A stretch of DNA of 64,000 bases from an uncultured Verrucomicrobiaceae bacterium (GCA_964500675.1 CAZCNY010000005.1:73612-137611), one strand, 5' to 3'. Counted from the stretch's first letter, positions 1,031 to 28,943 are shown. The notes: generated by a model not told the origin, from the letters alone. Program-made: numbers and translations.

Positions 1031-1053
1031 TGCTCAAAAAGACGACTGTTCCA

Positions 1054-1076
1054 AATTTGCAACACCATGTTTGAAA
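1054..1076. promoter_or_regulatory. Imperfect dyad in the LysR/oxygenase divergent promoter region (candidate regulator box)
   Basis: ATTTGCAACA-cca-TGTTTGAAAT. The arms match 8/10 as reverse complements, and the site lies between the two divergent start codons. Binding is not demonstrated. Confidence 0.3.
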
Positions 1077-1190
1077 TCAGGCTCTTCTTGCGAGATTTAG
1101 TCAAGTGGTAAAGTCGTCGCGTTCGCCAGTCGCCACCGCGACAGCGCTGAATGCGGTCGCCCGCGACCCAACAATAATGAGGACAACGTT

Positions 1191-2486
1191 ATGAGTCTGA
1201 AGCCCATTGTCAGCAAGCCCGAAAGCGGATTCTGGCACGATGCCTATCCTGAGTTGGGCAGAGGGCCGGTTTCGTTAGAGGACAGCGTGTGCCCGCGGTT
1301 TTACGCGAAAGAAAAAGAACACATCTTCAAAAAGAATTGGCTGTATGTCGGGCGCGTCGAGCAGCTGCCCAAAAAGGGCAGCTACTTCACGCGCGAACTG
1401 CCCACGCTGGATACTTCGGTGATTTTGGTGCGCGACAAGGACGATGTTATTCGCGCGCTTCACAATATCTGTCCGCATCGCGGCAATAAACTGGTTTGGC
1501 AGGACGATCCCTTCGAGGAAACGCAGGGCACGGCGCCGTTATTTTATTGCCGCTTTCATGGTTGGCGTTACAACCTCGACGGCTCGCTGATTAAACCCTC
1601 GCGCGAAGATTTGCTGCTCGATTTCGACAAAACCAAGTGCAGCGTGCCGTCGATACAGTGCGAAATATGGAAGGGATTTATTTTCATTAATTTGAATCGC
1701 GACAACAAAGAAACGGTGCGCGATTTTCTCGGCGAGTTCGCTGAAGGGATAGAAGGTTATCCGTTCGAGCGGCCGTATCAGCTGTATAAATTCAAAGCGG
1801 AGCTGCAATGCAATTGGAAAATTTTCATGGATGGTTTTGCCGAGAGCTATCACGGGCCGTATTTGCACGCCGGTTCGTTCGGCGCGCTGACCGAAGTCGC
1901 CAAAATGGACAAAGCCAATCCTTACACCGACGCGCTGGCGTTCCAGATCAAAGGGCTGCACCGGATGTTTTCGTTTTACGGCGAGCCCTCGAAGCAGACG
2001 CCGTTTTCGCGCCCCATCGAATGTCTGACCGAATCGAGTCCGGCCGGACCGTGGCATAAAAAAGCCGACACGGGTCCGCTGCCAAAGGGGTTGAATCCAA
2101 CCCGCTCCGAGAAATACGGCTTCGATTCGTTTCAGTTTTTCCCCAATTTTGTGTTGATCTTCGGTTCTTCAGGCTTTACCACGCATACGCATTGGCCGAC
2201 CGGACCGCATTCGCACATTATCGAAGTGGAAATGTTTTACCGGCCGCCGCAAAGCCACAAAGAGCGCATCGCACAGGAGCTGACAGTATCGTTCCTCAAC
2301 GACATCGTGCTGGAGGATGCGAGCCCGCTCGAAGGCATGCAGGCGATGTTGAATAGCGGCGCGCTCAAGCAGTTTTACGTGAACGATGAGGAAATTTTGA
2401 TTCGTCATTTGCATAAAGTTGTGCAAGACGCCGTCGCCGATGGCGAGAAACAGAGCGAAGCGAAAAATAAAGGAGGCATCCAATGA
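1191..2486 (+). CDS. Rieske non-heme iron oxygenase, alpha (catalytic) subunit
   Basis: 431-aa ORF with GAGGA RBS at 1179-1183. Rieske [2Fe-2S] ligands CPHRG...CRFHGW. Mononuclear-iron motif DGFAESYHGPYLH in the C-terminal catalytic domain. No beta subunit, ferredoxin or reductase gene is adjacent. Confidence 0.9.
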   Translation: MSLKPIVSKPESGFWHDAYPELGRGPVSLEDSVCPRFYAKEKEHIFKKNWLYVGRVEQLPKKGSYFTRELPTLDTSVILVRDKDDVIRALHNICPHRGNKLVWQDDPFEETQGTAPLFYCRFHGWRYNLDGSLIKPSREDLLLDFDKTKCSVPSIQCEIWKGFIFINLNRDNKETVRDFLGEFAEGIEGYPFERPYQLYKFKAELQCNWKIFMDGFAESYHGPYLHAGSFGALTEVAKMDKANPYTDALAFQIKGLHRMFSFYGEPSKQTPFSRPIECLTESSPAGPWHKKADTGPLPKGLNPTRSEKYGFDSFQFFPNFVLIFGSSGFTTHTHWPTGPHSHIIEVEMFYRPPQSHKERIAQELTVSFLNDIVLEDASPLEGMQAMLNSGALKQFYVNDEEILIRHLHKVVQDAVADGEKQSEAKNKGGIQ

Positions 2487-2806
2487 GTTCGCTGCTGCCA
2501 AAACAATTCGCTGACCTCGAACATCTCGTTCCCGAATGGGCCATTGAAGATGGCCAGCAACGTTATTTAAAACGCGTCAATAGCACGATGGAGCAACTCA
2601 AGGCGTTTTACGACAAGATGTTTCCGCGCGGCAAAGAAGCGATCGAGTACATCGATCGGTTTGATTATCAACAGCCGCTGCCGCAGGATGCGGCGAATCT
2701 GCGCAATCTGGTTTATGCGTTGATCACCGTTGCGCTCGCGGTTGAAGTCTGGAAACAACCGCGCGTAAAACATTCGGCGCGTACGGTGCTGACACGTCTG
2801 GCTTGA
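2483..2806 (+). CDS. Hypothetical 107-aa protein, start/stop-overlapped with the Rieske oxygenase
   Basis: ATGA start/stop overlap with the upstream gene, on the same strand and inside the operon. No signal peptide and no motif I recognise. One hydrophobic stretch (LVYALITVALAVEVW). Confidence 0.55.
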   Translation: MSSLLPKQFADLEHLVPEWAIEDGQQRYLKRVNSTMEQLKAFYDKMFPRGKEAIEYIDRFDYQQPLPQDAANLRNLVYALITVALAVEVWKQPRVKHSARTVLTRLA

Positions 2807-2840
2807 TGCCGAGATAACGAATTTTTGCGAGGAACCAAAC

Positions 2841-3659
2841 ATGGCACTCGAAGTAATCGATCTGACGCCGCGTATCGGCAGCGAGATCAGAACAGATCTT
2901 GAAACCTTATTGCGCGGTTCCGAGGCGCAAAACATTCGCGGCATTTTGGAGCAGCGCGGCGTCATTTTTTTTCGCGGTCTTGATATCAGCGACCAGCAAC
3001 AGGTGACCATCGCCAAAACGCTGGGCCATCCGCTCAAGGAGGGCGGCGGCGAGGATGGCGTCTATAAAATTTCGCTGGATTCGAGCGTGAATAAAAAAGC
3101 CGATTATCTGCGAGGCTCGATGCTCTGGCACGTCGATGGCTCCACGCAGGAAAAACCGTATCTGGGTACGATGCTGCGCGCGGTCAAACTGGCAGACCAG
3201 GGCGGACAAACGGAATTCTGTAACACCTATGCCGCTTACGATGATTTGCCGGAAGCAGAAAAGTGCGCGCTCGAAAAACTTCGCGTCGTGCACAGCATGG
3301 AAAGGTCGCTGTGGTGTTTATACGCCGAGCCGAGCTATGAACAAGTGCAGGCGTGGCAGGAAATACCCGCTAAATCTTGCCCGCTGGTGTGGACGCATAA
3401 AACCGGACGCAAATCATTGCTGCTCGGCGCAACGGCCGATTACGTCGAAGGCATGTCGCCCGAAGCGAGCAGAAAACTGCTGGTGCGTCTGCGCGAGTGG
3501 GCGACCCAACCGCAATTTGTCTACCACCACGAGTGGCAAGTGAGCGATTTAATTATCTGGAGCAACACCGGCGCCATGCATCGCGCATTACCCTACGCCG
3601 CCGATAGCGGCCGCTTGATGATCCGCACCACATTGGAGGGCGAAGAACCGCTGAATTGA
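2841..3659 (+). CDS. TauD/TfdA-family Fe(II)/2-oxoglutarate-dependent dioxygenase
   Basis: 272-aa ORF. HxD of the facial triad in LWHVDGS and the distal His in GAMHRALPY. Length and layout are typical of taurine/sulfonate/phenoxyalkanoate dioxygenases. The substrate cannot be called. Confidence 0.87.
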   Translation: MALEVIDLTPRIGSEIRTDLETLLRGSEAQNIRGILEQRGVIFFRGLDISDQQQVTIAKTLGHPLKEGGGEDGVYKISLDSSVNKKADYLRGSMLWHVDGSTQEKPYLGTMLRAVKLADQGGQTEFCNTYAAYDDLPEAEKCALEKLRVVHSMERSLWCLYAEPSYEQVQAWQEIPAKSCPLVWTHKTGRKSLLLGATADYVEGMSPEASRKLLVRLREWATQPQFVYHHEWQVSDLIIWSNTGAMHRALPYAADSGRLMIRTTLEGEEPLN

Positions 3660-3748
3660 ATGTCTCGACCCGGCCCTTTGCAATCTTGCGGTTTTTGCGA
3701 ACCCAATGACGTCTTATCGACTTTGAAATGCCTAAGACAACGGTGGTG

Positions 3749-5059
3749 CTAAGCAGGGTTTTGAAATCTTACGATGACATCTAAACCGCCAAGCGAACCC
3801 GGGCTTTTGAGCTCGATATTGGCGTGATGGCGATCGGCGATTTCTTTGACGATCGCCAGCCCCAATCCATTGCCTTCAGTATCAGAATTTCTGCCTCGAT
3901 AGAATCGATCGAAAATCCGGGGCTGGTCTTCCGCAGCGACACCCGGACCTGCATCGCTTACGATTAGATGCGGTTCTGGAATCGAATTGATCAATACATC
4001 AACGCGACCGCCGCTGCTTGAATATTTAATGGCATTATCGATGAGATTGCGCAGTAATACTTTCAATGAAAAAGGATCGCCCAACACCAAAGCGGGCGCC
4101 GATGCCAATACGCCAAGGTCCATGTTTTTTTCGTGTGCATTGGGAAGCGCCTCCTCTACCGCAGCGCGAGCTGCAGCAACGAGATTGACGGTGCTAAATG
4201 CCGTGTGCGACACATCGGATGAACTGCGTGCCAACGCTAATAGCTGACGCGCAAGATTGACGCAGCGCTCCAGACTCGCCTTAACATCGTGCACGGCCTG
4301 TAATCGTCGCTCTTCAGTTTTCGCTCGCTCCAAAACTTGGAATTGCACTTGTAATGCCGTCAGGGGTGTGAGTATTTCGTGCGCAGCATCCGTAATAAAA
4401 TTCTTTTGTGAAGCAATAACTTGTTTCAGGCGCCCCAATAAATCATTCAGTGCATTGGCGACCGGCAATAACTCATTCGGCAAATTTTTCGCTGACACCT
4501 CGTGCAAAGCCGTGGGGGATCGCGCGCGAAGCTCATTTGTAAATTGTTTAAATGGCTTAAGGCTACGATCGACGACGAACCAGAGCACTAATAAAAAAAA
4601 TGGAATCAATAGCGTAATTTGCGTGGCTATACCCGATGTAAGCAGGGTTAATACTTTAGATTGAACTCGAAGCGGCTGAGCAACGGCGATGACACTGTCG
4701 GGTTCTATGCGGGTATAAACCCGCCAGTCTTCACCTGAAATCGCTTCGGTTCTAAAGCCGCTCGCAACCGGACGCTCGATATCAAGATGCCGGCACGAAA
4801 GATATGCCGGATTTTTAGCGTCGCCCTTCCATATCGCTAGCGCGAGGTTTACACGAGTGGTGTCTTCGCATGGATTGTCATCGATTTTCTTTTCGAGAAC
4901 GTCCTTGGGAACCACGCGAGAAAATTCCATGAGTTGAACATCGTAAAATTGAACAAGCCCACGCCGAGAATCCACGAGAAATTTACAAATAATGATGACG
5001 GTCAGTAGCACAATGGAAAGCAGTAGCGAAATCAGCAGAAAATGACGAATCGATTTCAT
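3749..5059 (-). CDS. Two-component sensor histidine kinase (periplasmic sensing, HAMP-DHp-CA)
   Basis: 436 aa. Two TM segments flank a ~120-aa periplasmic domain. H-box AAHEILTPLTAL, N-box LIDNAIKYS, G-boxes DAGPGV and GNGLGLAIV. 4-nt overlap with the response-regulator gene. Confidence 0.92.
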   Translation of the reverse strand: MKSIRHFLLISLLLSIVLLTVIIICKFLVDSRRGLVQFYDVQLMEFSRVVPKDVLEKKIDDNPCEDTTRVNLALAIWKGDAKNPAYLSCRHLDIERPVASGFRTEAISGEDWRVYTRIEPDSVIAVAQPLRVQSKVLTLLTSGIATQITLLIPFFLLVLWFVVDRSLKPFKQFTNELRARSPTALHEVSAKNLPNELLPVANALNDLLGRLKQVIASQKNFITDAAHEILTPLTALQVQFQVLERAKTEERRLQAVHDVKASLERCVNLARQLLALARSSSDVSHTAFSTVNLVAAARAAVEEALPNAHEKNMDLGVLASAPALVLGDPFSLKVLLRNLIDNAIKYSSSGGRVDVLINSIPEPHLIVSDAGPGVAAEDQPRIFDRFYRGRNSDTEGNGLGLAIVKEIADRHHANIELKSPGSLGGLDVIVRFQNPA

Positions 5060-5718
5060 GAAGCGGAGATAACCGTGTAACCAACGCCGCGAACCGTGAC
5101 GATAAAGTCTGCACCCAAGCGTTTGCGCAATGCGTGCACATAAACTTCGATGGTATTGCTCTCCACCTCATGCCCCCATGCGTAGAGTTTTTCTTTCAAT
5201 TGGTCGCGCGACAGGATGGCGCCTGGACGTTCGATTAGGGCATGCAGTAAAAAGAATTCACGTGTGGTCAGCGCAACATCCTGGCCACTCACATTCACCT
5301 GATGCGTCGCTAAATTTAAACTGACACCGCGATGCGTAATGATCGGTTCGGCCCGTCCTGCGCGGCGCCGCAGCAACGCACGAATACGCGCACCCAATTC
5401 ATCGAGATCAAAAGGTTTTGTTAAATAATCATCGGCACCGCTATCGAGCCCGAGTACGCGATCAGCAGGTGCTTCTCGAGCCGTTACAATGAGAACGGCG
5501 ATGTCATTATTTTCCGTGCGCAACTTGCGCAAAATACCGAGCCCTCCCTGTCCCGGCAAGCCCAGGTCGAGGATGACCAGATCGTGCAAGCGCGTTCTGA
5601 GTTGCGCGTCTGCTTCGTCACCATCGCGCACCCAGTCCACCGCATAACCTTCTTCGCGCAAGGTTTCGTAGACGCCGCGTCCGATCAGACGATCATCTTC
5701 TACTAACAGCAATCTCAT
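5056..5718 (-). CDS. OmpR/PhoB-family DNA-binding response regulator
   Basis: 220 aa. Receiver domain (MRLLLVEDD, LVILDLGLPG, TAR, KPF) plus a C-terminal winged helix (TTREFFLLHAL...TVRGVGY). Confidence 0.94.
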   Translation of the reverse strand: MRLLLVEDDRLIGRGVYETLREEGYAVDWVRDGDEADAQLRTRLHDLVILDLGLPGQGGLGILRKLRTENNDIAVLIVTAREAPADRVLGLDSGADDYLTKPFDLDELGARIRALLRRRAGRAEPIITHRGVSLNLATHQVNVSGQDVALTTREFFLLHALIERPGAILSRDQLKEKLYAWGHEVESNTIEVYVHALRKRLGADFIVTVRGVGYTVISAS

Positions 5719-5823
5719 CGTGTCGTATCCGAACTCCGCGTTGCGCGACCGCCGAGCATAAGTCTCAAGTCTTAACCCAACATTAAATTTATACGCTGAA
5801 TTGACTCGAATCCGGCCAAAAAA

Positions 5824-5859
5824 TTAAGGCCCCATTAAGCATAGCTTGGCAAAGTGCAG
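5824..5859 (+). promoter_or_regulatory. Phased motif TTAAG-N6-TTAAG-N6-TTGGCAAAGTGCAG upstream of paralog A, in the region shared with the divergent two-component operon
   Basis: TTAAG at 5824-5828 and 5835-5839 (11-bp phasing), and TTGGCAAAGTGCAG at 5846-5859. The same architecture recurs at 8009-8045, with different spacer sequences. Confidence 0.45.
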
Positions 5860-5953
5860 ATGACTGGCTGACCGATGCAGCAGTTAACCATAAGCATGTA
5901 TCCAACGGCAGATCAATAAAGCACCTAAACATAATTAAACAAGAGCTAATTTC

Positions 5954-7909
5954 ATGGACCCACTCAGTCTAACGAGCTTCAAACAACGTAAATTAAATGT
6001 GGCCCTGCTGTGTCTGCTTTCATTGTCCACTGTTGGGTTAATTGCCTGCGGTGGCGGACATTCATCATCACATGCCGCTTCATCTGCTACCGAAGATCAC
6101 CCCGCACCCGCCCCGGAGCCTGTCAGCGTCGAAGAATTACCGATGCCCCCGACAGCGCCATCGAATACGGCGGGCGCCTGCAATGCGACAATCAATTCGC
6201 ACGGAACTGGCTGCATCAGCGGCATTATACAATCGGGAAGTTTTTTACCCGACGGGCATCACGTCGTGGCTGCCGTCAATTTTGCAGGCGCACCGGCCGC
6301 CCCCGATCCGGCCAGTATTTACAGCGGCACGCAACTAATTATCGTCAAAACCGATGGCACGACATTTTCGAACGGCGATGCATGGAAATGCGTGACCTGC
6401 GGCATGCCCGATGCGAATGCGCAAGGCATTAATACAACCCGTGATTATCCGCAGACATTTCACGACGGCAAACGCTTAATGGCCGGAACGAATATTTTCG
6501 ATTGCTCGCCACATCTGTTGACCGATGACGATTGCACACCCGATCAAATGCACGCATACCCGATCCGCTGGAACGTAACGGCTGACGGCTCCGGCAATGG
6601 CGGCTCTATTCGCGAATTGCGTTTGCATCCCGACGACGCGCATCTGGGGTTTAACGCGGTATTTATTGGTGGCGGCAAATACGATGAGTACGGCTATCTG
6701 AGTCGTCTCGTATTTAATCCTTCGCCGAGCACCGGCACGCCGCTGGTACCGCGTTACGACCTCGAAAAAGTAACGCTGCTTTTTCAAGAGGGCTTGGATA
6801 AGCGGGTGCTAGCGGTGAATCCGAAAAATCCGAACGAATTAGTTATCAATCACCATGCGATTGAAGTCGGTGAATTTCGCGGCTTCACCAAAAATGGTCG
6901 CGAGGTGATGTACATCGGCTATCCATTCGAATCGAGTAACATTGATGTGTTCGCCGCCGACCTCACTACCGGCGCGGTGCGTCGATTGACAAGCAATCCT
7001 GAATATACCGATCCCGTCGATTCTTCGCCCGACGATAATTGGATTGTGGCAATGGATACACGCGGTTCCGATCGTCAAGAATTTCTCGCGGCAATGCGCT
7101 GGATTCCGCCGATTACCGACGTGGTAACCACCAGTGCGACATCCTCGACTCGCAACAACGGCAATCGCCGTTTCTTCCAACCGATTTTGATCGATCGTTA
7201 TGGCGATCGCGGTGATTATCAGGGACAGCAACTCAATGCTGGCAACGGTGCGCCCGGTAGCATTAGCGATCCGAATTGGAACGGTATGGCCGATCCGCGC
7301 TGGTCGCCCGATGGCACGAGCGTGGTGTATTGGCAAGCGATGGTGGTCAGCCCGGCATGTGGTGGCATCAATCCATTGCCTTGCCCGGTTTCGACAGAGC
7401 CTGGCGGGCGCACATCGCGCATGATGATTGCGCGCCTCACGAGTCGGCAGCCATTGTCGATCGCGCAGCCGGCGGTTATTTCCGATACGGTGCCGTGGGG
7501 CACGCCATACGTGCCAGGTAGCGCAGCTCCAGTACGTGCACATATTCCGGAAGGATCGTATGTATTAAAAGGACAAGTTTCGGGGACAGCGAATGTGCAA
7601 ATTACCGAAACCGCGGATAAAAGCGCAATTGCCACCGTGGCTGTCGATTACAAGAATTATGCGGATGTTTCTGGATACACCATCAATGGCACTGAAAGCG
7701 TAACAGGTACTCGCCCGAGTATTACGAAAATCAGCGTCGATTGGTATTCGAATTTGGATCAGCGCGGCAATGTAACTGGTTCTAAAGTAACGAGCGTGGA
7801 TGGGTTTCATCTCATCATCGATGTCTTGACGAATCTTTTCAATGCGACCGGTACGCTCACCACAACGATCGACGGCAAAGTGTATACACAGCCTGCCAAT
7901 GGTACTTAA
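5954..7909 (+). CDS. Predicted lipoprotein, Cys-rich PD40/TolB-like beta-propeller protein of unknown function (paralog A)
   Basis: 651 aa. Lipoprotein signal with lipobox LIAC followed by a low-complexity linker (GGGHSSSHAASSATEDHPAPAPEP). PD40-like blade motifs (FLPDGHHVVA, SSPDDNWIVAMDTR, DPRWSPDGTSVVYWQ). Eight Cys are conserved with paralog B. It has its own intrinsic terminator. Confidence 0.85.
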   Translation: MDPLSLTSFKQRKLNVALLCLLSLSTVGLIACGGGHSSSHAASSATEDHPAPAPEPVSVEELPMPPTAPSNTAGACNATINSHGTGCISGIIQSGSFLPDGHHVVAAVNFAGAPAAPDPASIYSGTQLIIVKTDGTTFSNGDAWKCVTCGMPDANAQGINTTRDYPQTFHDGKRLMAGTNIFDCSPHLLTDDDCTPDQMHAYPIRWNVTADGSGNGGSIRELRLHPDDAHLGFNAVFIGGGKYDEYGYLSRLVFNPSPSTGTPLVPRYDLEKVTLLFQEGLDKRVLAVNPKNPNELVINHHAIEVGEFRGFTKNGREVMYIGYPFESSNIDVFAADLTTGAVRRLTSNPEYTDPVDSSPDDNWIVAMDTRGSDRQEFLAAMRWIPPITDVVTTSATSSTRNNGNRRFFQPILIDRYGDRGDYQGQQLNAGNGAPGSISDPNWNGMADPRWSPDGTSVVYWQAMVVSPACGGINPLPCPVSTEPGGRTSRMMIARLTSRQPLSIAQPAVISDTVPWGTPYVPGSAAPVRAHIPEGSYVLKGQVSGTANVQITETADKSAIATVAVDYKNYADVSGYTINGTESVTGTRPSITKISVDWYSNLDQRGNVTGSKVTSVDGFHLIIDVLTNLFNATGTLTTTIDGKVYTQPANGT

Positions 7910-7930
7910 CGATTAACCGGGTTATTTTTT

Positions 7931-7957
7931 ACCCCTCGTACGAGGGGTCTTTTTTCT
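7931..7957 (+). terminator. Rho-independent terminator after paralog A
   Basis: ACCCCTCG-ta-CGAGGGGT perfect 8-bp GC-rich stem followed by CTTTTTTCTT, about 20 nt after the stop codon. Confidence 0.85.
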
Positions 7958-8008
7958 TAAGTCAATATTAAATTGAATGGCATTTGCTCCTTATATTGAA
8001 AAGCAAAC

Positions 8009-8045
8009 TTAAGACGTATTTAAGAAAAACCTGGCAAAGTGCCAG
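8009..8045 (+). promoter_or_regulatory. Phased motif TTAAG-N6-TTAAG-N6-CTGGCAAAGTGCCAG upstream of paralog B
   Basis: TTAAG at 8009-8013 and 8020-8024. CTGGCA-AAG-TGCCAG at 8031-8045 is a perfect palindrome. It lies 116 nt upstream of the ATG at 8161. Confidence 0.45.
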
Positions 8046-8160
8046 TGGGTAAAACGGTGAGGTATTTTTTATGCAGATCGATTGAGCGTGGTTTTTTGCT
8101 GCTCTTTCACTGGTTCCGTGACATCCAATAACGTCCATAAATCGCAACGGAGCGAGTATC

Positions 8161-10110
8161 ATGATTAAATCTAATCGAATATCGATTCGCGCGCGGCGCA
8201 CGCTGCTCGCAACATCGCTAAGTATTTTTTCTTGTTTTGGTGTCGCGATATCTGCCGCGGCAGACGAACCGTCGCTACATGATTTACTGAAATTGCTGCC
8301 ACCGAAACCCGAGCCGGTCAAGGTCGAGGAGTTGCCGGTTCCGCCGACATCTCCTTCGACTGCGATTGGCGCATGCACCACGGTTGTGAATCCTCATGGC
8401 ACCGGTTGCATCACCAATATTCAGCAATCGGGTAGCTTCTTACCGGACGGTCATCACGTTGTGGCGCTAGTGAATTATGCCGGCGCACCTGCCGCACCCG
8501 ATCCCACAAGTATTTATAGCGGCGTCCAGCTCATCATCGTCAAAACCGACGGCACCACCTTCGCGAACGGCGACGCATGGAAATGCGTGACCTGCGGTAT
8601 GCCAGCAGAAAATGCACAAGGCATCAGCACGGCACGTGATTATCCGCAGACATTTTTTGACGGCAAGCGTTTAATGGCGGGTACTAACATTTTCGATTGT
8701 TCGCCGTATAAATTGACGGACGATAATTGCACAGGGTCGCAAATGCACGCCTATCCCATTCGCTGGAACGTCACCGCCGATGGCTCGGGCGCTGGTGGAA
8801 GCATTCGCGAATTACGTATCCACCCCGACAATGTGCATCTCGGCTTTAATAGCACCGTCGTTAACAACGGTAAATTCGATCAGTTCGCTTATCTCGGCCG
8901 CTTGGTTTTTAATCCTGCTCCGGCGACCGGAACTCCGTCGGTTCCTCGTTATGATTTAACCAACGTAACGCGCATGTTCCAGGAGGGGCTGGATAAACGC
9001 GTGGTCACTGTGAATCCTTCAAAACCCAATGAATTGCTCATTAATAAGCAGGCGATCGAAGTTGGCGAATTTCGCGGTTGGACCAAAAACGGTCGCGAAG
9101 CAATGTACGTCGGCTATCCGTTTGAATCATCCAATATCGATGTATTCGCCGCCGATTTGCAAACCGGTAAAGTTCGGCGGCTAACACGCAACCCAGGTTA
9201 TGTCGATCCGGTGGACTCTTCACCCGACGACAATTGGATTGTCGCCATGGATACGCGCGCCACCGATCGCCAAAGTTTCGTGGCGGCGATGCGCGCGATT
9301 CCACCGATCACCGATGTGATTACGACGAGCGCGGTTTCTTCGGTACGCAACAACGGTCAACGTCGATTCTTCCAACCCTATTTAATCGATCGCTACGGCG
9401 ATCGCGGCAATTACAACGGCCAGCAATTAAATGCGGGCGATGGCGCGCCGGGCAGTATCAGCGATCCGAACTGGAATGGCATGGCCGATCCGCGCTGGTC
9501 GCCGGACGGTACCGCAGTGGTGTATTGGCAAGCGCTGGTGACGAGTCCCGCATGCGGTGGTATCAATCCATTGCCGTGTCCGGTTTCCACGGAACCTGGC
9601 GGCAGAACATCACGCATGATGATTGCGCGTTTGACGAACCGGAAACCGCTGCCGATTCCCACGCAACCGATAGCGCCGATTTCGGACACAATTGCTTGGG
9701 GCACTCCGTACGTACCTGGCAGCGCCGCGCCAGTACGCGCATTAATTCCGGCAGGCGCCTACACACTGCGCGGATTAATCTGGGGAACAGCGCAAGTTGT
9801 GGTAACGCACACGGCGGATGATCTCAATATCGATACCATTTCCGTGACGTATAACAATTATTCGGATGATCTTGTGCATTTTCTTAATGGTACTGAAAGT
9901 GTGCATGGCTCGCGTCCGAACCCGCTGACCACCGTGGTTGATTGGTATTCGAATCTTTTCCAAAACGGCATAGATACAGGCACCAAACTGACGAGTCAGG
10001 ATGGGTTTCATCTCAGCATCAATATCCTGACCAATCTGTTCAATGCAACCGGCACGTTGACGACAACAATAAATGGACACGCGTACATACAACCCGCCAA
10101 TGGGACTTAA
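8161..10110 (+). CDS. Secreted Cys-rich PD40/TolB-like beta-propeller protein of unknown function (paralog B)
   Basis: 649 aa with a GGAG RBS. Sec-type signal (..FGVAISAAA|DEP). Collinear with paralog A over ~590 aa, with most positions identical by eye. It has its own terminator. Confidence 0.85.
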   Translation: MIKSNRISIRARRTLLATSLSIFSCFGVAISAAADEPSLHDLLKLLPPKPEPVKVEELPVPPTSPSTAIGACTTVVNPHGTGCITNIQQSGSFLPDGHHVVALVNYAGAPAAPDPTSIYSGVQLIIVKTDGTTFANGDAWKCVTCGMPAENAQGISTARDYPQTFFDGKRLMAGTNIFDCSPYKLTDDNCTGSQMHAYPIRWNVTADGSGAGGSIRELRIHPDNVHLGFNSTVVNNGKFDQFAYLGRLVFNPAPATGTPSVPRYDLTNVTRMFQEGLDKRVVTVNPSKPNELLINKQAIEVGEFRGWTKNGREAMYVGYPFESSNIDVFAADLQTGKVRRLTRNPGYVDPVDSSPDDNWIVAMDTRATDRQSFVAAMRAIPPITDVITTSAVSSVRNNGQRRFFQPYLIDRYGDRGNYNGQQLNAGDGAPGSISDPNWNGMADPRWSPDGTAVVYWQALVTSPACGGINPLPCPVSTEPGGRTSRMMIARLTNRKPLPIPTQPIAPISDTIAWGTPYVPGSAAPVRALIPAGAYTLRGLIWGTAQVVVTHTADDLNIDTISVTYNNYSDDLVHFLNGTESVHGSRPNPLTTVVDWYSNLFQNGIDTGTKLTSQDGFHLSINILTNLFNATGTLTTTINGHAYIQPANGT

Positions 10111-10131
10111 TGATTAGAAAACTTCTGCTGA

Positions 10132-10158
10132 GCCCCTTTTCTAAAGGGGCTTTTTTTT
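10132..10158 (+). terminator. Rho-independent terminator after paralog B
   Basis: GCCCCTTT-tcta-AAGGGGC stem-loop followed by TTTTTTTT. Confidence 0.85.
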
Positions 10159-10251
10159 AGGTAGCATTAATTTTCCGACTGGCAGCAAAGATATTTACTA
10201 GAAATAGCGCCCGATTAATTAAGATAATCACAATAATAGGGAAGGCCGTGA

Positions 10252-12516
10252 ATGCAAAAGATTAAAATTTCCCGAGCATCGCTTGCGTCCATCTCACTGT
10301 TAACGATCGCCGCCACTCTCGGCAAAAATGCGGATGCTGCGGATAAATTGGACACTGTCATTGTCACCGCAAATAAAATCGAACAAGACGCGCAACAGAC
10401 CGCCATTTCAATGCAGTCGCTTTCGGGTGAAAAATTATCGAATATGGGTATCGGCAATGTTGCGGAGATCGCTCAATTTATTCCCGGATTGCAAATGGAC
10501 CAAGCGGGCGGCGGCTTGACCGCGACAGTTCGCATTCGCGGCATTGGCGCACCCGGTTATTCAGCGCTCGATCCTTCGGTGCCGATATTTATCGATGGTG
10601 TCGCGCAAGCACGCACAGGCGCTGGCTTTCGCGACCTTTTCGATATTGCGCATATCGAAGTGTTACGCGGACCGCAGAGCATACTCTATGGTCGCAACTC
10701 GACGGCAGGGGCAATTAATATTTGGACGAAGGATGCCAACGCCTATCGATGGAGTGGTTATTTACAGGCCCAAGCAGGCAATTACAATGACAGGGAGCTG
10801 AAAAGCACGGTTAATATTCCGCTGGTTGAAAGTTTGTTGGCAGCACGGCTCAGTTTTTTTTCGGTTTACCAGGATGGTTACATGAAAAATGTTTTACACG
10901 GCGATAATACAGAAAATGGTCATACCAGCCGCTTTGGAGGTCGCGCCAAAATCGCGTTAATCCCTGCAGAAAATCTGTCTATGCAATGGACGACAAGCTA
11001 TTCAAAAAACACCGAACATCCGGGGCATGCATGGGCCGTTGTACCTGCATTCTATTCCGATTACGCAAATAGTGCGGGCGGCATCGTTTCGCAACAAGGA
11101 AGCCATCAACTTCCTCACGACGATCGTTACAATGGCGATGTTTATCACAATGTATATCAGTCGGCTTACGATACTAATTTTTCCACGTCGATAACAGCGA
11201 ACTGGGATATCGACGGCGGTGTATTTTCCAAAAAAACACTGACGTCGATTACCGCCTACAACATTAATAAGTCCGATCAGTTGCTCGATCAGGATGCAAG
11301 CATTCTTGATTACGGTACATCGGCTGGTAAAGCCGACACCGATTCATGGTCGCAGGAGTTTCGCATAGCAAACAGCGATAGCGACGATCTCGAATACATG
11401 ATCGGGTTTTACTACTACGCAGAACGCGTAACCAGCACGCAAAATACCAATTCATTGCACAGTGACGCGATCGCTGCTTTTGACGCTTTGGGATTTAACG
11501 CCATCGGAAGCTACCCAACATCGGCTGATACAAAAAATGAATTCGGTGCCAATGACGAAGCCATTTTTAGCCACGTGACATATTCATTTTCGCCACAATT
11601 CAGTTTGACCGCAGGCCTGCGCGAATCTTGGGCGCAAAAGCGAGGCAACTCTACTCTTAACTCCGATATCTACGTCGGAAATTTGAATTTTTTACATATC
11701 GATAAAAACATTGTCGACCATGAGAATATTACCGATTCCGACACGTCGGGAACACTGCAAGCCCGTTATTTTTTGAACCCTGACGACATGATTTACATCG
11801 CTTACGATCGCGGCTTTAAGCCGGGAGGATTCAATCGCCTCATCACCAGCGCAAGCTTACCGACCACCTACAATAAAGAAATTTCGAATAATTATGAGAC
11901 CGGCGCAAAAACACAGTGGTTAAAAAATCGCTTACAAGCCGATATTGCTTTTTTCCATATGGATTTTAGAGATTTTCATCATCAGACGCTGACATCAAAC
12001 GGTGATGTCATTGTCGAGAATATTGGCAAAGCCACCTCTGATGGCGTCGAATTGGAGCTGCAAGCGCTTCCCGCATCCAACTTGAATTTGGCAACGAGTG
12101 TGGCGTACGTAAATCCGAGGGTACGCAGCGATACATCCGCTAGCTCTAATTTGCACAAAGGTGAGCTCATCCCGGATAGCAGCCAATACAGCGCCAACGT
12201 CAGCGCGGAATATAATCGCGCAATACCCACCGGGCATTCAAATGGCTTTCTGCGAATCGATTGGCTCTATCGAAGCCGATATGTTTTGGGCGACCCCCGC
12301 GACGGTTATTATCAGAACGGATATTCACTGATGGATATCCGCTGCGGCTTGCGTGATATGGGTGAGCACTGGGAGATAACAAGCTGGATTAAAAATGTTT
12401 TCGACAAGGAATATGCGGTTACCGGCAACTCCACCTCAGGGGCGCAAGGGACTGCCTTGTCGATTTATCCTGGGTCACCGCGCACCTTCGGCATTACAGC
12501 ACAATATAATTTCTGA
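10252..12516 (+). CDS. TonB-dependent outer-membrane receptor
   Basis: 754 aa. Signal peptide ending ..GKNADA. Plug-domain start DKLDTVIVTANK and IEVLRGPQSILYGRNSTAGAINI. The long beta-barrel ends in the aromatic terminal motif TAQYNF. Confidence 0.93.
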   Translation: MQKIKISRASLASISLLTIAATLGKNADAADKLDTVIVTANKIEQDAQQTAISMQSLSGEKLSNMGIGNVAEIAQFIPGLQMDQAGGGLTATVRIRGIGAPGYSALDPSVPIFIDGVAQARTGAGFRDLFDIAHIEVLRGPQSILYGRNSTAGAINIWTKDANAYRWSGYLQAQAGNYNDRELKSTVNIPLVESLLAARLSFFSVYQDGYMKNVLHGDNTENGHTSRFGGRAKIALIPAENLSMQWTTSYSKNTEHPGHAWAVVPAFYSDYANSAGGIVSQQGSHQLPHDDRYNGDVYHNVYQSAYDTNFSTSITANWDIDGGVFSKKTLTSITAYNINKSDQLLDQDASILDYGTSAGKADTDSWSQEFRIANSDSDDLEYMIGFYYYAERVTSTQNTNSLHSDAIAAFDALGFNAIGSYPTSADTKNEFGANDEAIFSHVTYSFSPQFSLTAGLRESWAQKRGNSTLNSDIYVGNLNFLHIDKNIVDHENITDSDTSGTLQARYFLNPDDMIYIAYDRGFKPGGFNRLITSASLPTTYNKEISNNYETGAKTQWLKNRLQADIAFFHMDFRDFHHQTLTSNGDVIVENIGKATSDGVELELQALPASNLNLATSVAYVNPRVRSDTSASSNLHKGELIPDSSQYSANVSAEYNRAIPTGHSNGFLRIDWLYRSRYVLGDPRDGYYQNGYSLMDIRCGLRDMGEHWEITSWIKNVFDKEYAVTGNSTSGAQGTALSIYPGSPRTFGITAQYNF

Positions 12517-12570
12517 TACACATCTTCATTTGTCGGCGATACGACTAAAAAGTACTTGACGCTAACGTGA

Positions 12571-12599
12571 CTATCGCAACTATCGCGACTATCGCGACT
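12571..12599. repeat. 9-bp tandem repeat (CTATCGCRA x3) in a convergent intergenic region
   Basis: ctatcgcaa ctatcgcga ctatcgcga ct, read directly from the sequence. Confidence 0.7.
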
Positions 12600-12790
12600 T
12601 AATCAGAGATTCAAAAAATCGCCTAGTCGGCTATTTTTTAAAAATGCCGTAGCTGATTATTTTCTGGTTCTGTTGAATCGATTCGCGTTCTATTGGTAAT
12701 TGGCCGCTATGGCCGGTGAAAGACCGATTACAAATTCGAGCCAGACAAAAACACACGGCTGCTTTTCACTCACCCATTACAGATGGCCTT

Positions 12791-13909
12791 TTAAAATGAA
12801 CGCTCAAACCATGTCGCCAGCGGCGCTGTTGCGCGTTGAATGATCCAGCCGATACCGATGAACACGGCGAGATATGCAAAGGTTGCCGCGGCGGCGGGCA
12901 GCGCGGCATAAATAACGTCGTAGCGCGACACCAGCGGCCAGTGCAGCAGGTAAATTTCGTAGGAATAGATTCCGATCAACGTGAACGCGCGCAATTCGAC
13001 GCGCTTGAGCGCGAACAACAGCACGAGTGACAGCGTGGTCACCATGCTCATGATTTGCTCTTTTGTCGTGCTTTCGCCGATGCCAGAATCGTAAGCGCTG
13101 TAAACCACAAGCGCGAGCAACAGCGCGAGCACGCAATAATATTGTACGCCGTTCAAGCGCGCGCGATATTCCCGCAGTTTTGGCGCCAATGCGCTGCTCT
13201 GTTCGCGATTCTCGAACAGCAGCGACGCGGCGACCATACCGAGCGGGAACGCCGCCGTGTGCACCTGGTACAAACGCGTCACCAACTCGATAACGCGCGG
13301 ATTCCACCACACCAAACCCTGCCCGAGCGCGAACAAGATCAGCGCCGACAGCCACACGCGCCGCCGCATGAAAACCAACGGCAGCAAGACGTAATAAAAC
13401 AATATCCAGGTGATATACCAGAGCACGGAATTGACGTCGCTCGGCATATCCGCCTTCGGGAAAAAACCCAGCAACGAGCGCACAATATACGCAACCGGGT
13501 AATAGCGATGCAGCACGAACGCGTCGAGCGCAAAAAAACCGATCAACACCGGCCACAATGGGATGAAAATTTTGAGCGCGCGCCTGCGATAAAAAAGTAA
13601 CGGCGCGAGCGGCTTTTTCATCATGCCGAGCGTGAGGCCGTAACCCGATAAGAACAGAAAAATATTGACGCCGACACCCGCACCCACCGAGAGCGGAAAT
13701 AGAAAGCGCGTGTCGTCGACAAGAAAGTAACCGATGTGGCCGAACACGACGGCGAGAATGGCGACGCCTTTGAGTTCCTGCGTCGCCGCGAGCGGCAACA
13801 AATCGCCGTACTCGATGCGCTTTGCAAACAACACCAGCGCAGCGGTGATGAAGGCGATGATAATCCACGTCTGCACGACGGCATTGGCGATGATGATGGT
13901 GCCTTGCAT
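12791..13909 (-). CDS. Acyltransferase family 3 (OafA/YrhL-like) integral membrane protein
   Basis: 372 aa and highly hydrophobic, with about 10 predicted TM segments. Conserved early His (VVFGHIGYF) and overall layout are typical of acyltransferase_3. The alternative 386-aa frame (12804-13964) is an Arg-rich shadow ORF. Confidence 0.8.
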   Translation of the reverse strand: MQGTIIIANAVVQTWIIIAFITAALVLFAKRIEYGDLLPLAATQELKGVAILAVVFGHIGYFLVDDTRFLFPLSVGAGVGVNIFLFLSGYGLTLGMMKKPLAPLLFYRRRALKIFIPLWPVLIGFFALDAFVLHRYYPVAYIVRSLLGFFPKADMPSDVNSVLWYITWILFYYVLLPLVFMRRRVWLSALILFALGQGLVWWNPRVIELVTRLYQVHTAAFPLGMVAASLLFENREQSSALAPKLREYRARLNGVQYYCVLALLLALVVYSAYDSGIGESTTKEQIMSMVTTLSLVLLFALKRVELRAFTLIGIYSYEIYLLHWPLVSRYDVIYAALPAAAATFAYLAVFIGIGWIIQRATAPLATWFERSF

Positions 13910-14005
13910 AGCGTCTCGCTTTTATTGTTCGGATAACGATAAATGCCGAACAGTATAGAAGCACCTCACCGCCGATGCATCGATGAGACGCGAATCAACG
14001 GTGAT

Positions 14006-16186
14006 TCAAAACGATTTGCTGACGCCGAAATACACTTCGCGGCGCAGCCCGAATTGCGGCGCGCCGACGCCGATACCCGAGCCATCGCGCAATTCGTAGC
14101 TGCGATCGAACAGATTCAACACCGCGACACGGCCATCGAGCGTGCCGTATTTGCCGAGATCGAAGCTGCGCTGCGCACTCAAATTAACCTGTGTGTAAGC
14201 AGGTAAATGGCCGGTATTGGCAAAGCCGTTGCGCAGTCCGCTGCCGTAGAGCAGATCGGTGCCGAATGTGGTCTCCTGCCAGCAATAACTGATGCCGGCC
14301 GAGCCCGACAGCGCCTGATCGTGATCGAGATGCACCCAATGCTGATTGATGTAATTCAATTCTTGCGCATCGAAATTGAATTGGCCCGTGACGATGTCGG
14401 TGGCCAGCGCCTGCGACCAGGCGAGATTGGCATACGCACTCACCGCGTCGTCGCGATACGAGCTCGATAGCTCGACGCCGCGAACTTGTCCGCGCTTGTA
14501 ATTGAACGCAGAATAAATCAGCGCGCTGCCAAACTGACCCTCGTCCTGCAAATTTTCCACTTTGCGATAATATGCATCGAGACCCACTGTTGTCGTCTCA
14601 CCCAGCTGCTGCGAAACGCCGACATCGAAATAATGCGAGCGCTCGGATTTGACCGCCGTGTTCGCATCGGATGGCAGCGCGTTAGTGGTGCCCTGAAACT
14701 TTTGAATCGACGTGGTATCGATGGTTTCGGTCGGCGGCGGCGTGAAATAGCGCGAATAGCCGGCGTGCAGATGCGTCTGCGGCGTCAGATCGTACACCAC
14801 TCCGATGCGCGGACTGAGCTGCTGCTCATCGACCACCGTCGTGGTTTTATCGTAGCGCGCGCCGTAATTCAGCGTCAGCGCTTTCGTCAATTGCCATTCG
14901 TCCTGAAGATAGACGCCGGTCAGTGCGCCGTTCAATGCCGCTTTATCGTAAATCGGCAACGGCGTGCCGTTGAGCTGATTGCCGCCGGCATCGGCCGCGA
15001 ACACAACGGCGTTATTCATCGCGCTGAAACGTTCGCCGCTGTAATACACGCCCGCGCGCAGCGTGTGATCGTTGCCGAGTTTGTAACTCGCATCGCCTTG
15101 CAGTCCCGCGCTCTCATTCTCGCGCAGAATATTCGCGGCGATGCCGTTGTATTGCAGATCGCCGATGGCGTCGGGGGTATAGCCAACGTTGGTATAGCGA
15201 TGAAACACGGCGAGCTGATACGTTGCACGATCGCCTACATTGCGTTGATACGAAATAATCTGAAAACTATTTTTTTCGTTTTGGTTGGCATCGAGCGCAA
15301 GCGAGTCCAACGGCGCCGTTCCATCGACATAAAAATTCGGCGTCTGTCCCGCAACATTCGGAATTTGAAAATGACTGTTCGAGATACCGAATAGAAAACT
15401 CAGACGGCTGTCGGGATCGACGATGTACGAGAGATAACCGAAGCCCTTACCCTGTTTCGTTTCATCGTGATGCGCATCGCGCGCCGCGGTGGGATTTTCG
15501 ATACCCATGTTATCGCTCAGATAAGAGCCCGTCGCGAAATACGTGAATGCGTTGTGCGAACCGCCCGCTTCGAGATTGGTCTCCTGATGATTGTGACTGC
15601 CGCCGAGATAACCGATGCTGCCACCGTTTTCGAGACCGCCGCTCTTGGTATGAATATCGACGACGCCTGCGGTGCGATAGCCGTACTGTGCGGGCAACGC
15701 GCCCGTGAGAAAATTAATCTGATCGGCGAAACGCGTATCGAGCACTTGACCGAATCCCGAAATCGGCTCGGGAATCACCACTTCGTTGATTCGATACTGC
15801 ACGTTGCCGTGATCGCCGCGCACGTGCAATTGGCCGTATGAATCCTGCACCACGCCGGGCGCCTGCAACACGACTTGATTGAGCGGTGTGGTGTCACCGA
15901 GCGGCAGTGTCTGCAACGCATCGCTATCGAAGCGATACACCGAACTGCCGGTCTCGGGCGCAAGACCATTGCGCGTCTCGTCGAGACGCTGGCCGACGAC
16001 ATCGACCGTTTCGATTTTTTGTGCGGTTGAAGCAGTCGCGGGCGCCGCCAACGCGCCACTGCTAAAGCCGGCGGCGAGCACGACATGCGGCCACGCGCTG
16101 CGCGCACGCGCGCTATTTTTAGCCATGGCACCCTGTTTAGACATAACAACGGCGGCGAATAATTTTTTCGCGAAAACGATTTTCAT
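14006..16186 (-). CDS. TonB-dependent outer-membrane receptor
   Basis: Start chosen at ATG 16186 (MKIVFAKK..), preceded by AGGAG. The track ORF extends to 16543, but that extension overlaps the upstream gene and is not receptor-like. Plug motifs (IETVDVVGQRL, GQLHVRGDHGNVQYRIN). C-terminal YFGVSKSF. Later in-frame starts (MSKQG, MAKNS) are also possible. Confidence 0.9.
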   Translation of the reverse strand: MKIVFAKKLFAAVVMSKQGAMAKNSARARSAWPHVVLAAGFSSGALAAPATASTAQKIETVDVVGQRLDETRNGLAPETGSSVYRFDSDALQTLPLGDTTPLNQVVLQAPGVVQDSYGQLHVRGDHGNVQYRINEVVIPEPISGFGQVLDTRFADQINFLTGALPAQYGYRTAGVVDIHTKSGGLENGGSIGYLGGSHNHQETNLEAGGSHNAFTYFATGSYLSDNMGIENPTAARDAHHDETKQGKGFGYLSYIVDPDSRLSFLFGISNSHFQIPNVAGQTPNFYVDGTAPLDSLALDANQNEKNSFQIISYQRNVGDRATYQLAVFHRYTNVGYTPDAIGDLQYNGIAANILRENESAGLQGDASYKLGNDHTLRAGVYYSGERFSAMNNAVVFAADAGGNQLNGTPLPIYDKAALNGALTGVYLQDEWQLTKALTLNYGARYDKTTTVVDEQQLSPRIGVVYDLTPQTHLHAGYSRYFTPPPTETIDTTSIQKFQGTTNALPSDANTAVKSERSHYFDVGVSQQLGETTTVGLDAYYRKVENLQDEGQFGSALIYSAFNYKRGQVRGVELSSSYRDDAVSAYANLAWSQALATDIVTGQFNFDAQELNYINQHWVHLDHDQALSGSAGISYCWQETTFGTDLLYGSGLRNGFANTGHLPAYTQVNLSAQRSFDLGKYGTLDGRVAVLNLFDRSYELRDGSGIGVGAPQFGLRREVYFGVSKSF

Positions 16187-16212
16187 GAGGAATTCTCCTG
16201 AAATAGCGTGAC

Positions 16213-16232
16213 GCGCCGATTTGCATCGGCGC
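16213..16232. other. Perfect 8-bp stem-loop between the small His/Cys protein gene and the receptor gene
   Basis: GCGCCGAT-ttgc-ATCGGCGC. No U-tract in the sense orientation, so it is not called a terminator. Confidence 0.3.
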
Positions 16233-16256
16233 ACTAAAAAATAGGTACGCGGTATT

Positions 16257-16562
16257 TCAGAAGTGAACGGGAGGAGCGCGGCTATCGTAGCAACGGCTGA
16301 AGCCGCCGCGTGTGGCAGGCAGCGTAAAAAGAAAAACAAATTCAGACAGCGCAACGGCAATAAACGGCACCGTGCTGTCGATCGCGGCGGCACCGTTGGC
16401 ACTGGAAAGCAGACATAACGCGCAATCAGCGTGATGCGTATCGCTGTTATCGTGCCAGTGACCGGCAGCAGCGACCTGACCGGCGACGAATAACGCGAGC
16501 ACGAGCAACAGCCAGTAGGGTCGGCGTGCGCGACGCTTGTCAATATCGTGCTGGCTATTCAT
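16257..16562 (-). CDS. Small membrane/secreted His- and Cys-rich protein (DUF2946-like, from memory)
   Basis: 101 aa. N-terminal TM/signal segment (PYWLLLVLALFVAGQVAAA) followed by GHWHDNSDTHHADCALC. Sits immediately upstream of a TonB-dependent receptor on the same strand. The family assignment is unverified. Confidence 0.55.
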   Translation of the reverse strand: MNSQHDIDKRRARRPYWLLLVLALFVAGQVAAAGHWHDNSDTHHADCALCLLSSANGAAAIDSTVPFIAVALSEFVFLFTLPATRGGFSRCYDSRAPPVHF

Positions 16563-24886: not shown

Positions 24887-24955
24887 TATTTACTTTCAGT
24901 GATGCCCATTATTTACTTTCAGTGATGCGCATTATTTATTTTCGGTAATGCGCAA
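24887..24955. repeat. 23-bp tandem triplication comprising the last codons and stop of gspL
   Basis: Copies at 24887-24909, 24910-24932 and 24933-24955. The two spacer copies differ at 1 position. The genic copy differs from its neighbour at 4/23. On the minus strand each copy reads ..RITE(N/S)K-stop. Confidence 0.85.
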
Positions 24956-26116: not shown

Positions 26117-26199
26117 GCCTGCTTCATCTGTTTGTTATGTCGATTGTCTGCATTTGAATGACTGATCGTGCGTTCGCATCACCGATCGCCAGCTCTCTA

Positions 26200-28909: not shown

Positions 28910-28943
28910 GCATTCGCCATCTCGAACGCACTCGTCAATCAAC

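Follow-up and report, generated by a model that had tools for sequence, protein, structure and literature searches.

The 64,000-nt window analysed here (CAZCNY010000005.1:73612–137611, assembly GCA_964500675.1; "the window" denotes this whole stretch) contains at 3749–12516 a five-gene module. A sensor kinase and a response regulator lie divergent from two tandem genes for exported propeller proteins, paralogs A and B, and a TonB-dependent receptor gene follows. Sequence comparison identifies A and B as bacterial members of the saponin hydrolase family, whose prototype is the fungal enzyme Sdn1. We read the whole module, with a probability of about 0.55, as a two-component-regulated pair of Sdn1-type glycoside hydrolases that is probably coupled to TonB-dependent uptake. 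In an original prediction, made from the DNA alone, the paralogs fitted no characterised family. A confident match to a family with a known substrate was found instead, which weakens that prediction.

The assignment is carried by homology searches. That the paralogs escape classification holds for the domain and structure libraries: Pfam and NCBIfam scans of both proteins gave no family above threshold, and a sequence search of the PDB gave a single marginal TolB-like match (E = 0.031). It does not hold for the homology search, which leads to the saponin hydrolase family. In a large protein collection, 1155 homologs of the paralogs were found, the best 120 of which align along more than 90% of their length at 56–83% identity. 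Sources among these 120 include a Spongiibacteraceae metagenome-assembled genome (MAG; 83%), Acidobacteria, Actinomadura, Frankia, Streptomyces and ascomycete fungi (~61%). Several homologs bear the UniRef name 'Saponin hydrolase', and members of the clusters are named 'putative saponin hydrolase precursor protein' (Neofusicoccum parvum) and 'saponin hydrolase precursor' (Aspergillus flavus). Saponin hydrolase names also occur on proteins of Macrophomina, Colletotrichum, Xylaria, Hypoxylon, Rosellinia and Aspergillus parasiticus, and when fungal members were used to seed a profile search, dozens of further fungal proteins so named came back, interleaved with bacterial ones. Over 604 amino acids (aa), paralog A shares 59% identity with the A. 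flavus precursor (P0221), and the identity of the paralogs to fungal family members is 56–61% over the full length.

The family name goes back to Sdn1 of Neocosmospora vasinfecta, its founding member. As tabulated in PMC8120277, Sdn1 is extracellular and splits soyasaponin I, so that soyasapogenol B and an intact triose result (Watanabe et al. 2004, AEM 70:865). Judged by the alignments, the saponin hydrolase family is compact and unusually conserved. A HMMER search of 1.84 billion representatives at 50% identity gave 441 matches, many of them fragments, with 145 at E <= 1e-30; most family members collapse into one 50% identity cluster, and ~90 residues are invariant across 35 diverse members, acidic ones such as D134, D171, E221, D227, E307, E317, E326, D331, D353, D414, D447 and D453 among them. 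The eight cysteines of A (76, 87, 146, 149, 184, 194, 469 and 477), singled out in the original prediction as conserved, are indeed kept in 34–35 of these 35 aligned proteins and are also present in the secreted fungal members.

The AlphaFold2 model of A, which was built on the 35-sequence alignment, has a pLDDT of 86.6 and a pTM of 0.85. A disordered signal and tether segment (residues 1–46) is followed by a six-bladed propeller (~57–500, roughly 24 strands) and an all-beta C-terminal beta-meander domain (~534–645). The matches found by Foldseek in the PDB are TolB, S9-peptidase propellers and WD40 proteins, with template-modelling (TM) scores of 0.2–0.5. The PD40/TolB-like blades proposed earlier are thereby upheld as a fold, whereas at the sequence level their signal is only marginal: the TolB model TIGR02800 scores 15.0 and 16.6 bits against a cut-off of 343.15, no tol-pal genes lie nearby, and the paralogs do not qualify as TolB equivalogs. 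Modelled alone, the C-terminal domain forms a meander of 7–8 strands (pLDDT 83.6) that has no significant match in the PDB. The model of A gave no match to solved beta-propeller glycosidase or lyase structures, and a search of both sequences for GxSxG and HExxH motifs found neither, as the original prediction had stated. Because no known glycosidase fold is matched, the catalytic machinery cannot be read from known folds, which explains why no signature had been seen in the sequence.

A and B are 72% identical over the full length. The identity is 80% over residues 49–533 and 60% over 534–651, so that the C-terminal part is the more divergent one, in agreement with the earlier description. By sequence inspection, both proteins carry signals for export, as expected: A has a canonical lipobox, L-I-A-C32, followed by a Gly/Ser/Pro-rich tether, and B has a Sec signal that ends either in an atypical lipobox, I-F-S-C25, or in a signal peptidase I site between AAA and D. 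The atypical lipobox IFSC appears as ILSC in the ortholog of B. Paralog A is thus predicted to be lipid-anchored on a flexible tether, and B would be soluble in the periplasm, secreted, or anchored through the atypical lipobox. The minus strand carries, at 24932–35427 and thus ~15 kb away from the module, the genes of a complete type II secretion system (GspC, D, E, F ... K, L) as one operon. Should B lack a lipid anchor, this system could be its exporter; nothing specific was found that ties the two together.

The two-component pair is borne out by its Pfam domains. The regulator stop overlaps the kinase start, and the two genes therefore form an operon. In the kinase, two predicted membrane helices enclose a periplasmic domain of ~110 residues, and HisKA and HATPase_c domains follow. 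Its best NCBIfam matches are QseC (195 bits) and PmrB (143.6 bits; cut-off 314), and those of the regulator are PmrA (233.5 bits; cut-off 330) and then QseB (210.6 bits). All four scores lie below the equivalog cut-offs; neither protein qualifies as a PmrA or PmrB equivalog, and the assignment stops at OmpR-family membership.

PmrA boxes consist of two directly repeated hexamers, in the form YTTAAK-N5-YTTAAK. The motif at both paralog promoters is, from its sequence, a PmrA-box-like direct repeat with hexamers 5 bp apart (Table 1). Exactly two copies of TTAAG-N6-TTAAG (hexamers NTTAAG-N5-NTTAAG) exist in the 64 kb, one at 5824–5839 and one at 8009–8024, where 0.06 would be expected, and the shared motif noticed earlier is thus real and non-random. 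With up to one mismatch, six matches to the box are found in the 64 kb, all of them in the two intergenic promoter regions. The box combined with the TGGCA element gives four matches at up to three mismatches (0.72 expected), three of which are the promoter regions of the module. The TGGCA...GC element was rejected by inspection as a sigma-54 promoter, as the spacing from GG to GC is 8 nt, not 12. Inspection downstream of the boxes gave no convincing -10 hexamer.

The same arrangement is found in the nearest relative, contig L080 of a Spongiibacteraceae MAG. Here, kinase and regulator are divergent from a lipoprotein-type paralog, a second paralog follows, and the same box with a TTGGCA element lies upstream of both orthologous hydrolase genes. 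The regulator at this position is 85.5% identical to that of the window. From the boxes at both promoters, their retention in L080 and the PmrA-like character of the regulator, we infer that the adjacent regulator directly activates both paralogs. It may also act on its own operon through the minus-strand box in the divergent intergenic region. Each paralog is followed by a hairpin and a T run, and the view that A and B are separately controlled units of one regulon is supported by the box at both promoters and its conservation in L080.

Gene coordinates were taken from a six-frame list of open reading frames (ORFs), which reproduces the five genes of the original prediction exactly. The G+C content at third codon positions (GC3) of the five genes from kinase to receptor is 0.476–0.558, with the kinase lowest, whereas the remaining 43 window genes average 0.65 (sd 0.053). 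All five fall within the seven lowest values of the 48 (Mann-Whitney p = 0.0004). Because the low GC3 is common to all five, they appear to share an origin. A scan of 3500–13000 against Rfam detected no significant RNA element.

Table 1. Genes, promoter-region motifs and terminators of the module (window coordinates).
Feature	Position	Strand	Description
Sensor histidine kinase	3749–5059	minus	436 aa; Pfam HisKA + HATPase_c; QseC/PmrB-like
OmpR-family response regulator	5056–5718	minus	220 aa; Pfam Response_reg + Trans_reg_C; PmrA/QseB-like
One-mismatch box, divergent intergenic region	5771–5786	minus	TTAATGTTGGGTTAAG; oriented toward regulator operon
Promoter-region motif of A	5824–5857	plus	ATTAAG-N5-ATTAAG, 7 nt, then TGGCAAAGTGC; proposed regulator site
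Paralog A	5954–7909	plus	651 aa; putative saponin-hydrolase-family protein (Sdn1-type)
Intrinsic terminator of A (predicted)	7931–7956	plus	hairpin 7931–7948 ACCCCTCGTACGAGGGGT, then CTTTTTTC
Extra one-mismatch box upstream of B promoter	7956–7972		similar extra box in L080
Promoter-region motif of B	8009–8042	plus	CTTAAG-N5-TTTAAG, 7 nt, then TGGCAAAGTGC
Paralog B	8161–10110	plus	649 aa; putative saponin-hydrolase-family protein (Sdn1-type)
Intrinsic terminator of B (predicted)	10130–10160	plus	hairpin 10130–10152 GAGCCCCTTTTCTAAAGGGGCTT, then T run
Degenerate box + TGGCA element upstream of receptor	10156–10184	plus	two mismatches, spacing one base longer
TonB-dependent receptor	10252–12516	plus	754 aa; Pfam Plug + TonB_dep_Rec_b-barrel

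The receptor has a signal peptide followed by a TonB-box-like sequence, DTVIVTA, and lacks an N-terminal signalling extension. PF07715 and PF00593 both score above their cut-offs, and the protein is a TonB-dependent transporter as originally assigned. Its best NCBIfam match is the siderophore-receptor subfamily TIGR01783, at 149.1 bits against a cut-off of 223.5, and no Fur box within three mismatches of the consensus was found near its promoter. A siderophore receptor was rejected on the sub-cut-off score, the missing Fur box and the occurrence of relatives in catabolic clusters. The SusC signature TIGR04057 reaches only 15.9 bits in the receptor (cut-off 46.2), and no SusD-like gene is present in the block. 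The degenerate box ahead of the receptor is a weak indication that it belongs to the regulon.

The receptor subfamily comprises ~20 proteins at 41–55% identity, after which identity falls to 31%; no close relative of the receptor turned up in a metagenome scan. The neighbours of the subfamily in Spongiibacteraceae are genes for P450, flavin reductase, thiolase/ChsH2-like, CoA-transferase, Amidohydro_2, Rieske and MFS proteins. This catabolic context, together with the missing Fur box, argues that the subfamily imports organic catabolic substrates and not iron chelates, and an aglycone or an amphipathic glycoside as the imported compound would agree with this context. The relatives lie in three Spongiibacteraceae MAGs (L084, L085 and L087) and in a contig from the window's own sample (L086), and ferredoxin genes are also among their neighbours. 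L085 and L087 have an identical ten-gene arrangement around the receptor relative, which looks like a cluster for uptake and catabolism of a hydrophobic or aromatic compound.

The surroundings of homologs elsewhere were surveyed in 78 genome loci and nine further contigs; neighbouring ORFs were clustered, and recurrent clusters were scanned with Pfam. Short-chain dehydrogenases/reductases (SDRs) are neighbours in 28 of the 78 loci, and are directly adjacent to the homolog in about nine. Other recurrent neighbours are P450 (7 loci) and the glycoside hydrolases GH3 (7), GH39 (6) and GH79-like (5), as well as TetR regulators and, in 11 acidobacterial loci, TonB-dependent-like barrels. The order TetR-P450-SDR-hydrolase is repeated in proteobacterial loci. 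Among contigs with closer relatives, one carries an SDR gene upstream of the hydrolase homolog and a GH1 gene directly downstream, one GH79-like and SDR genes, and one a GH106 rhamnosidase and GH1; receptor-hydrolase-P450 and TetR...receptor-hydrolase arrangements also occur. Tannase, acetyl-xylan esterase, PQQ dehydrogenase and alpha/beta hydrolase genes are found at some loci. These neighbours fit an enzyme whose action would release a chain of sugars, with uronic acid and rhamnose among them, from a hydrophobic aglycone.

Receptor genes, too, are often part of this context. In contigs L088 and L090, a receptor gene lies immediately upstream of, and co-directional with, hydrolase homologs that are 67–68% identical to the paralogs. 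Within the fetched flanks of ~10 kb, a receptor-like gene is present in 11 of 16 acidobacterial loci, and in 4 of 12 alphaproteobacterial loci, which is near background. The proposed processing system linked to a TonB-dependent transporter remains plausible in view of the receptors in L088 and L090 and the low GC3 common to the five genes. Broad conservation of the whole regulator-propeller-receptor neighbourhood, on which the original prediction depended, was not seen: the two-component pair is adjacent in few of the 78 loci, mostly of Frankia, and the receptors within ~10-kb flanks, found in 15 of 30 Gram-negative loci, are not orthologous to that of the module. In Frankia, Parafrankia and Pseudofrankia (L012, L030, L053, L067 and L077), the hydrolase homolog is immediately preceded by a regulator-kinase pair in the same orientation, which looks like a second, independent association with two-component control. 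Tandem hydrolase duplicates also occur in Frankia (L012) and Streptomyces (L031, L037 and L041).

Homologs with 45–49% identity are present in eight Novosphingobium genomes (L047, L050, L052, L054, L056, L058, L060 and L078) and, within the same range, in the root isolate Phenylobacterium sp. LjRoot219 (L048), often beside TetR, P450, SDR, GH39 and GH79-like genes. Soyasaponin Bb significantly enriches Novosphingobium in soil (PMC7503093), and the discussion of that paper names Phenylobacterium together with Novosphingobium as not enriched by daidzein. The homologs of both genera give circumstantial support to a saponin role and are candidate genes for soyasaponin degradation.

The history of the paralogs was approached by identities over shared columns and by a rough neighbour-joining tree without support values. 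A is 86% identical to the A-type protein of L080, and B is ~80% identical to all proteins compared, its positional ortholog included. B branches below a clade of A-type lipoproteins (A, L080 A, P0003 and P0004), and this branching dates the A/B duplication to before the two Spongiibacteraceae lineages diverged. In the tree, the sequences from fungi group in a single clade, beside which actinobacterial sequences stand. Identity is ~60% between family members from Proteobacteria, Acidobacteria, Actinobacteria and ascomycete fungi (P0088, P0097, P0116, P0119, P0173 and P0176), and the closeness of fungal and actinobacterial proteins suggests either inter-kingdom transfer or extreme constraint. 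A 59% identical copy recorded for the rotifer Rotaria magnacalcarata (P0176) could be transfer or contamination. Members with 200–350 additional residues occur in Daldinia/Hypoxylon (P0146–P0148, P0151, P0158, P0159 and P0162; about 960–1005 aa). Several long fungal members carry the fungal transcription-factor domain PF11951 and are possibly gene-model fusions. Longer bacterial members (P0052, P0066, P0099, P0103 and P0109; 830–894 aa) have an extra domain.

In the mechanism that we propose, the kinase would respond to a periplasmic cue by phosphorylating the OmpR/PmrA-like regulator, which would bind the PmrA-box-like direct repeat at the promoters of A and B, each its own transcription unit with its own terminator. 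The products would be extracytoplasmic, disulfide-stabilised enzymes composed of a six-bladed propeller and a C-terminal beta domain. They would cleave a hydrophobic aglycone of the triterpenoid or steroid type from a sugar chain that begins with a uronic acid, releasing aglycone and oligosaccharide. This glycoside-cleaving function is proposed because of the 56–61% full-length identity to fungal members and the genomic context elsewhere. The downstream receptor might then import the substrate or one of the products, which is the least secure step.

Several observations weigh against a hydrolase pair coupled to uptake. The tie to the characterised Sdn1 runs through database names that close homologs received by similarity, no characterised bacterial member was found in the literature searched, and the Foldseek matches of the model of A in the PDB include no glycosidase fold. 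Within the window, no glycan-degrading, uronate, P450 or SDR genes adjoin the module. Outside the window, a regulator pair next to homologs is confined to L080 and, as an independent case, to about five loci of the Frankia group. The receptor gene stands behind a strong terminator, and its box is degenerate; its own orthologs in Spongiibacteraceae clusters have no hydrolase homologs as neighbours, and the receptors that do adjoin homologs elsewhere are not orthologous to it (25% identity). Part of the adjacency between receptors and homologs (4 of 12 alphaproteobacterial loci) may be chance, Acidobacteria and sphingomonads being rich in receptors.

The points that concern the receptor also favour a possible, though less probable, reading in which the unit consists of the regulator pair and the two hydrolases only, and the receptor is an independent neighbour that imports an unrelated organic nutrient or metal chelate. 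The terminator separates it from B, it has its own promoter-like site, the box ahead of it is shifted and carries two mismatches, its orthologs stand in clusters devoid of hydrolase homologs, and its best, sub-cut-off NCBIfam match is a generic siderophore-receptor subfamily; contig L080 ends before the receptor position. However, the receptor shares its low GC3 with the other four genes, receptors adjoin the closest metagenomic homologs and lie near many acidobacterial ones, and neither a Fur box nor iron-uptake genes are found nearby.

It is rather unlikely that the bacterial proteins share only fold and ancestry with the fungal ones and act on another substrate class or by another chemistry, such as other glycosides, lipid or aromatic glucuronides, ester cleavage or a lyase reaction. 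The spread of the family over Acidobacteria, Actinobacteria, Proteobacteria and fungi of many habitats would agree with this, as would the neighbours that vary by locus (from tannase and acetyl-xylan esterase to PQQ dehydrogenase and alpha/beta hydrolase) and the variability of the C-terminal domain, the highest in the protein. The very high conservation of the family, with its 145 representatives at E <= 1e-30 and most members in one 50% cluster, speaks against it; the ~90 residues invariant in 35 diverse members argue for a conserved chemistry, and the neighbours are mainly glycosidases (GH79-like and GH106 among them) and oxidising enzymes of the steroid/terpenoid type.

Closer to the original prediction, the paralogs might be non-catalytic capture proteins, either TolB-like or analogous to a hemophore or surface lipoprotein, that hand a ligand to the receptor. 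We consider this improbable. No catalytic motif is recognised, the structures most similar to the model are TolB propellers, which are not enzymes, and the propeller parts of S9 peptidases, and one paralog is a lipoprotein encoded beside a receptor; yet 59% full-length identity connects A with enzyme-family proteins of fungi, which have no TonB systems, most homologs belong to Gram-positive bacteria and fungi without any such receptor, and many Asp, Glu, His and Arg residues are invariant. Least probable of all is an envelope-stress or PmrA-type surface-remodelling regulon with structural propeller proteins, to which the PmrA/QseB-like regulator, the PmrA-like box and a downstream Acyl_transf_3 gene (12791–13909) point, but in which the sub-cut-off scores of regulator and kinase as PmrA/PmrB equivalogs, the lack of lipid A modification genes in the block, the normal GC3 (0.74) of the acyltransferase gene, which places it outside the low-GC3 block, and the catabolic context of homologs elsewhere find no place.

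The hydrolase pair can also be fitted into a wider and more tentative picture, a self-contained, horizontally acquired locus for triterpenoid or steroid glycoside utilisation in a gammaproteobacterium. A surface-tethered and a soluble enzyme would strip the glycan whole, the PmrA-like system would sense the substrate, and a receptor of a subfamily for hydrophobic catabolic substrates would import the aglycone or the intact glycoside; we hold these elements together to be possible, not probable. If this were true, the enzymes would represent a mechanistically new glycoside hydrolase family common to bacteria and fungi, and the enrichment of Novosphingobium by soyasaponin would be explained.

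The Sdn1 family has no representation in Pfam, NCBIfam or the PDB and is therefore invisible to routine annotation. Its genes are candidates for the bacterial degradation of glucuronide saponins, including in the soyasaponin-enriched Novosphingobium lineage, and the present locus is a compact test system: its promoter motif is defined, its tandem enzymes comprise an anchored form and a putative non-anchored one, and a receptor gene adjoins them. The kind of enzyme is already known from fungi, and the logic of the system resembles that of other TonB-dependent glycoside utilisation loci; new here are bacterial, differently organised members of this kind.

Genes on both sides of the module were considered as possible parts of it. 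At 95–3659, a LysR gene is divergent from genes for a Rieske oxygenase alpha subunit (weakly GbcA-like), a 107-aa ORF without a family match and a TauD-family dioxygenase. This is probably an unrelated small catabolic operon, because its GC3 is normal and it has no recurrent association with the hydrolase family. On the other side, a membrane acyltransferase gene (Acyl_transf_3) and a second TonB-dependent receptor gene (845 aa as an ORF, 726 aa in the public gene call) occupy 12791–16543 on the minus strand, convergent with the module receptor. The GC3 values of these two genes, 0.74 and 0.65, are normal and lie outside the low-GC3 block. The Rieske and TauD genes, the acyltransferase and the second receptor were excluded from the module on their normal GC3 and the lack of a recurrent link to homologs. 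Beyond 16.5 kb, the window is housekeeping chromosome, with genes for SAICAR synthase, BamC, DUF1631, a DegQ-like protease, a sigma factor, TruD, enolase, CTP synthase, TilS, DnaE, LpxB, BamA and RseP and the type II secretion operon at 24.9–35.4 kb. The DUF1631 protein (722 aa, 539 bits; 19606–21774, minus) is encoded between the BamC/SAICAR-synthase region and nitroreductase/ApbE genes.

Compared with the fungal proteins of the Sdn1 family, A and B belong to the same length class (620–650 aa), are likewise exported, carry the same eight cysteines and show the propeller and C-terminal domain layout along the whole alignment. They differ in the bacterial host, the lipoprotein nature of one copy, the tandem duplication, and the accompanying two-component system and adjoining TonB-dependent receptor. 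With TolB/PD40 proteins, the paralogs share a six-bladed propeller with PD40-like blade motifs, and TolB is among the best Foldseek matches. However, the TM-scores are 0.2–0.5, the TolB N-terminal domain and the tol-pal context are missing, and an additional C-terminal domain and four putative disulfides are present.

The two-component pair resembles PmrA/PmrB (BasRS) and QseB/QseC in domain order, in its best family matches (PmrA and QseB) and in the hexamer direct repeats at target promoters, whereas its putative targets are hydrolase genes instead of lipid A modification genes. The root-associated Sphingobium sp. RC1 degrades steroidal saponins stepwise with exo-glycosidases of GH3, GH39, GH78 and GH106 and does not degrade soyasaponin Bb (PMC10653915). 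Deglycosylation followed by oxidation of the aglycone by dehydrogenases would be common to both systems, and the GH3, GH39 and SDR neighbours of the homologs resemble the RC1 set. In contrast, the present family is unrelated in sequence to the RC1 enzymes, and its fungal prototype takes off the whole glycan at once.

Sus-like polysaccharide utilisation loci of Bacteroidota and the TonB-dependent carbohydrate loci of Xanthomonas and Caulobacter encode hydrolases of the surface or periplasm, a TonB-dependent importer of the outer membrane and a dedicated sensor or regulator together. The module has the same combination of hydrolases, TonB importer and sensor/regulator. It differs from these loci in lacking a SusD-like partner, a SusC signature in the receptor and, within the block, both an inner-membrane transporter and genes for downstream sugar catabolism, and in having a hydrolase family that is not a classified glycosidase fold.

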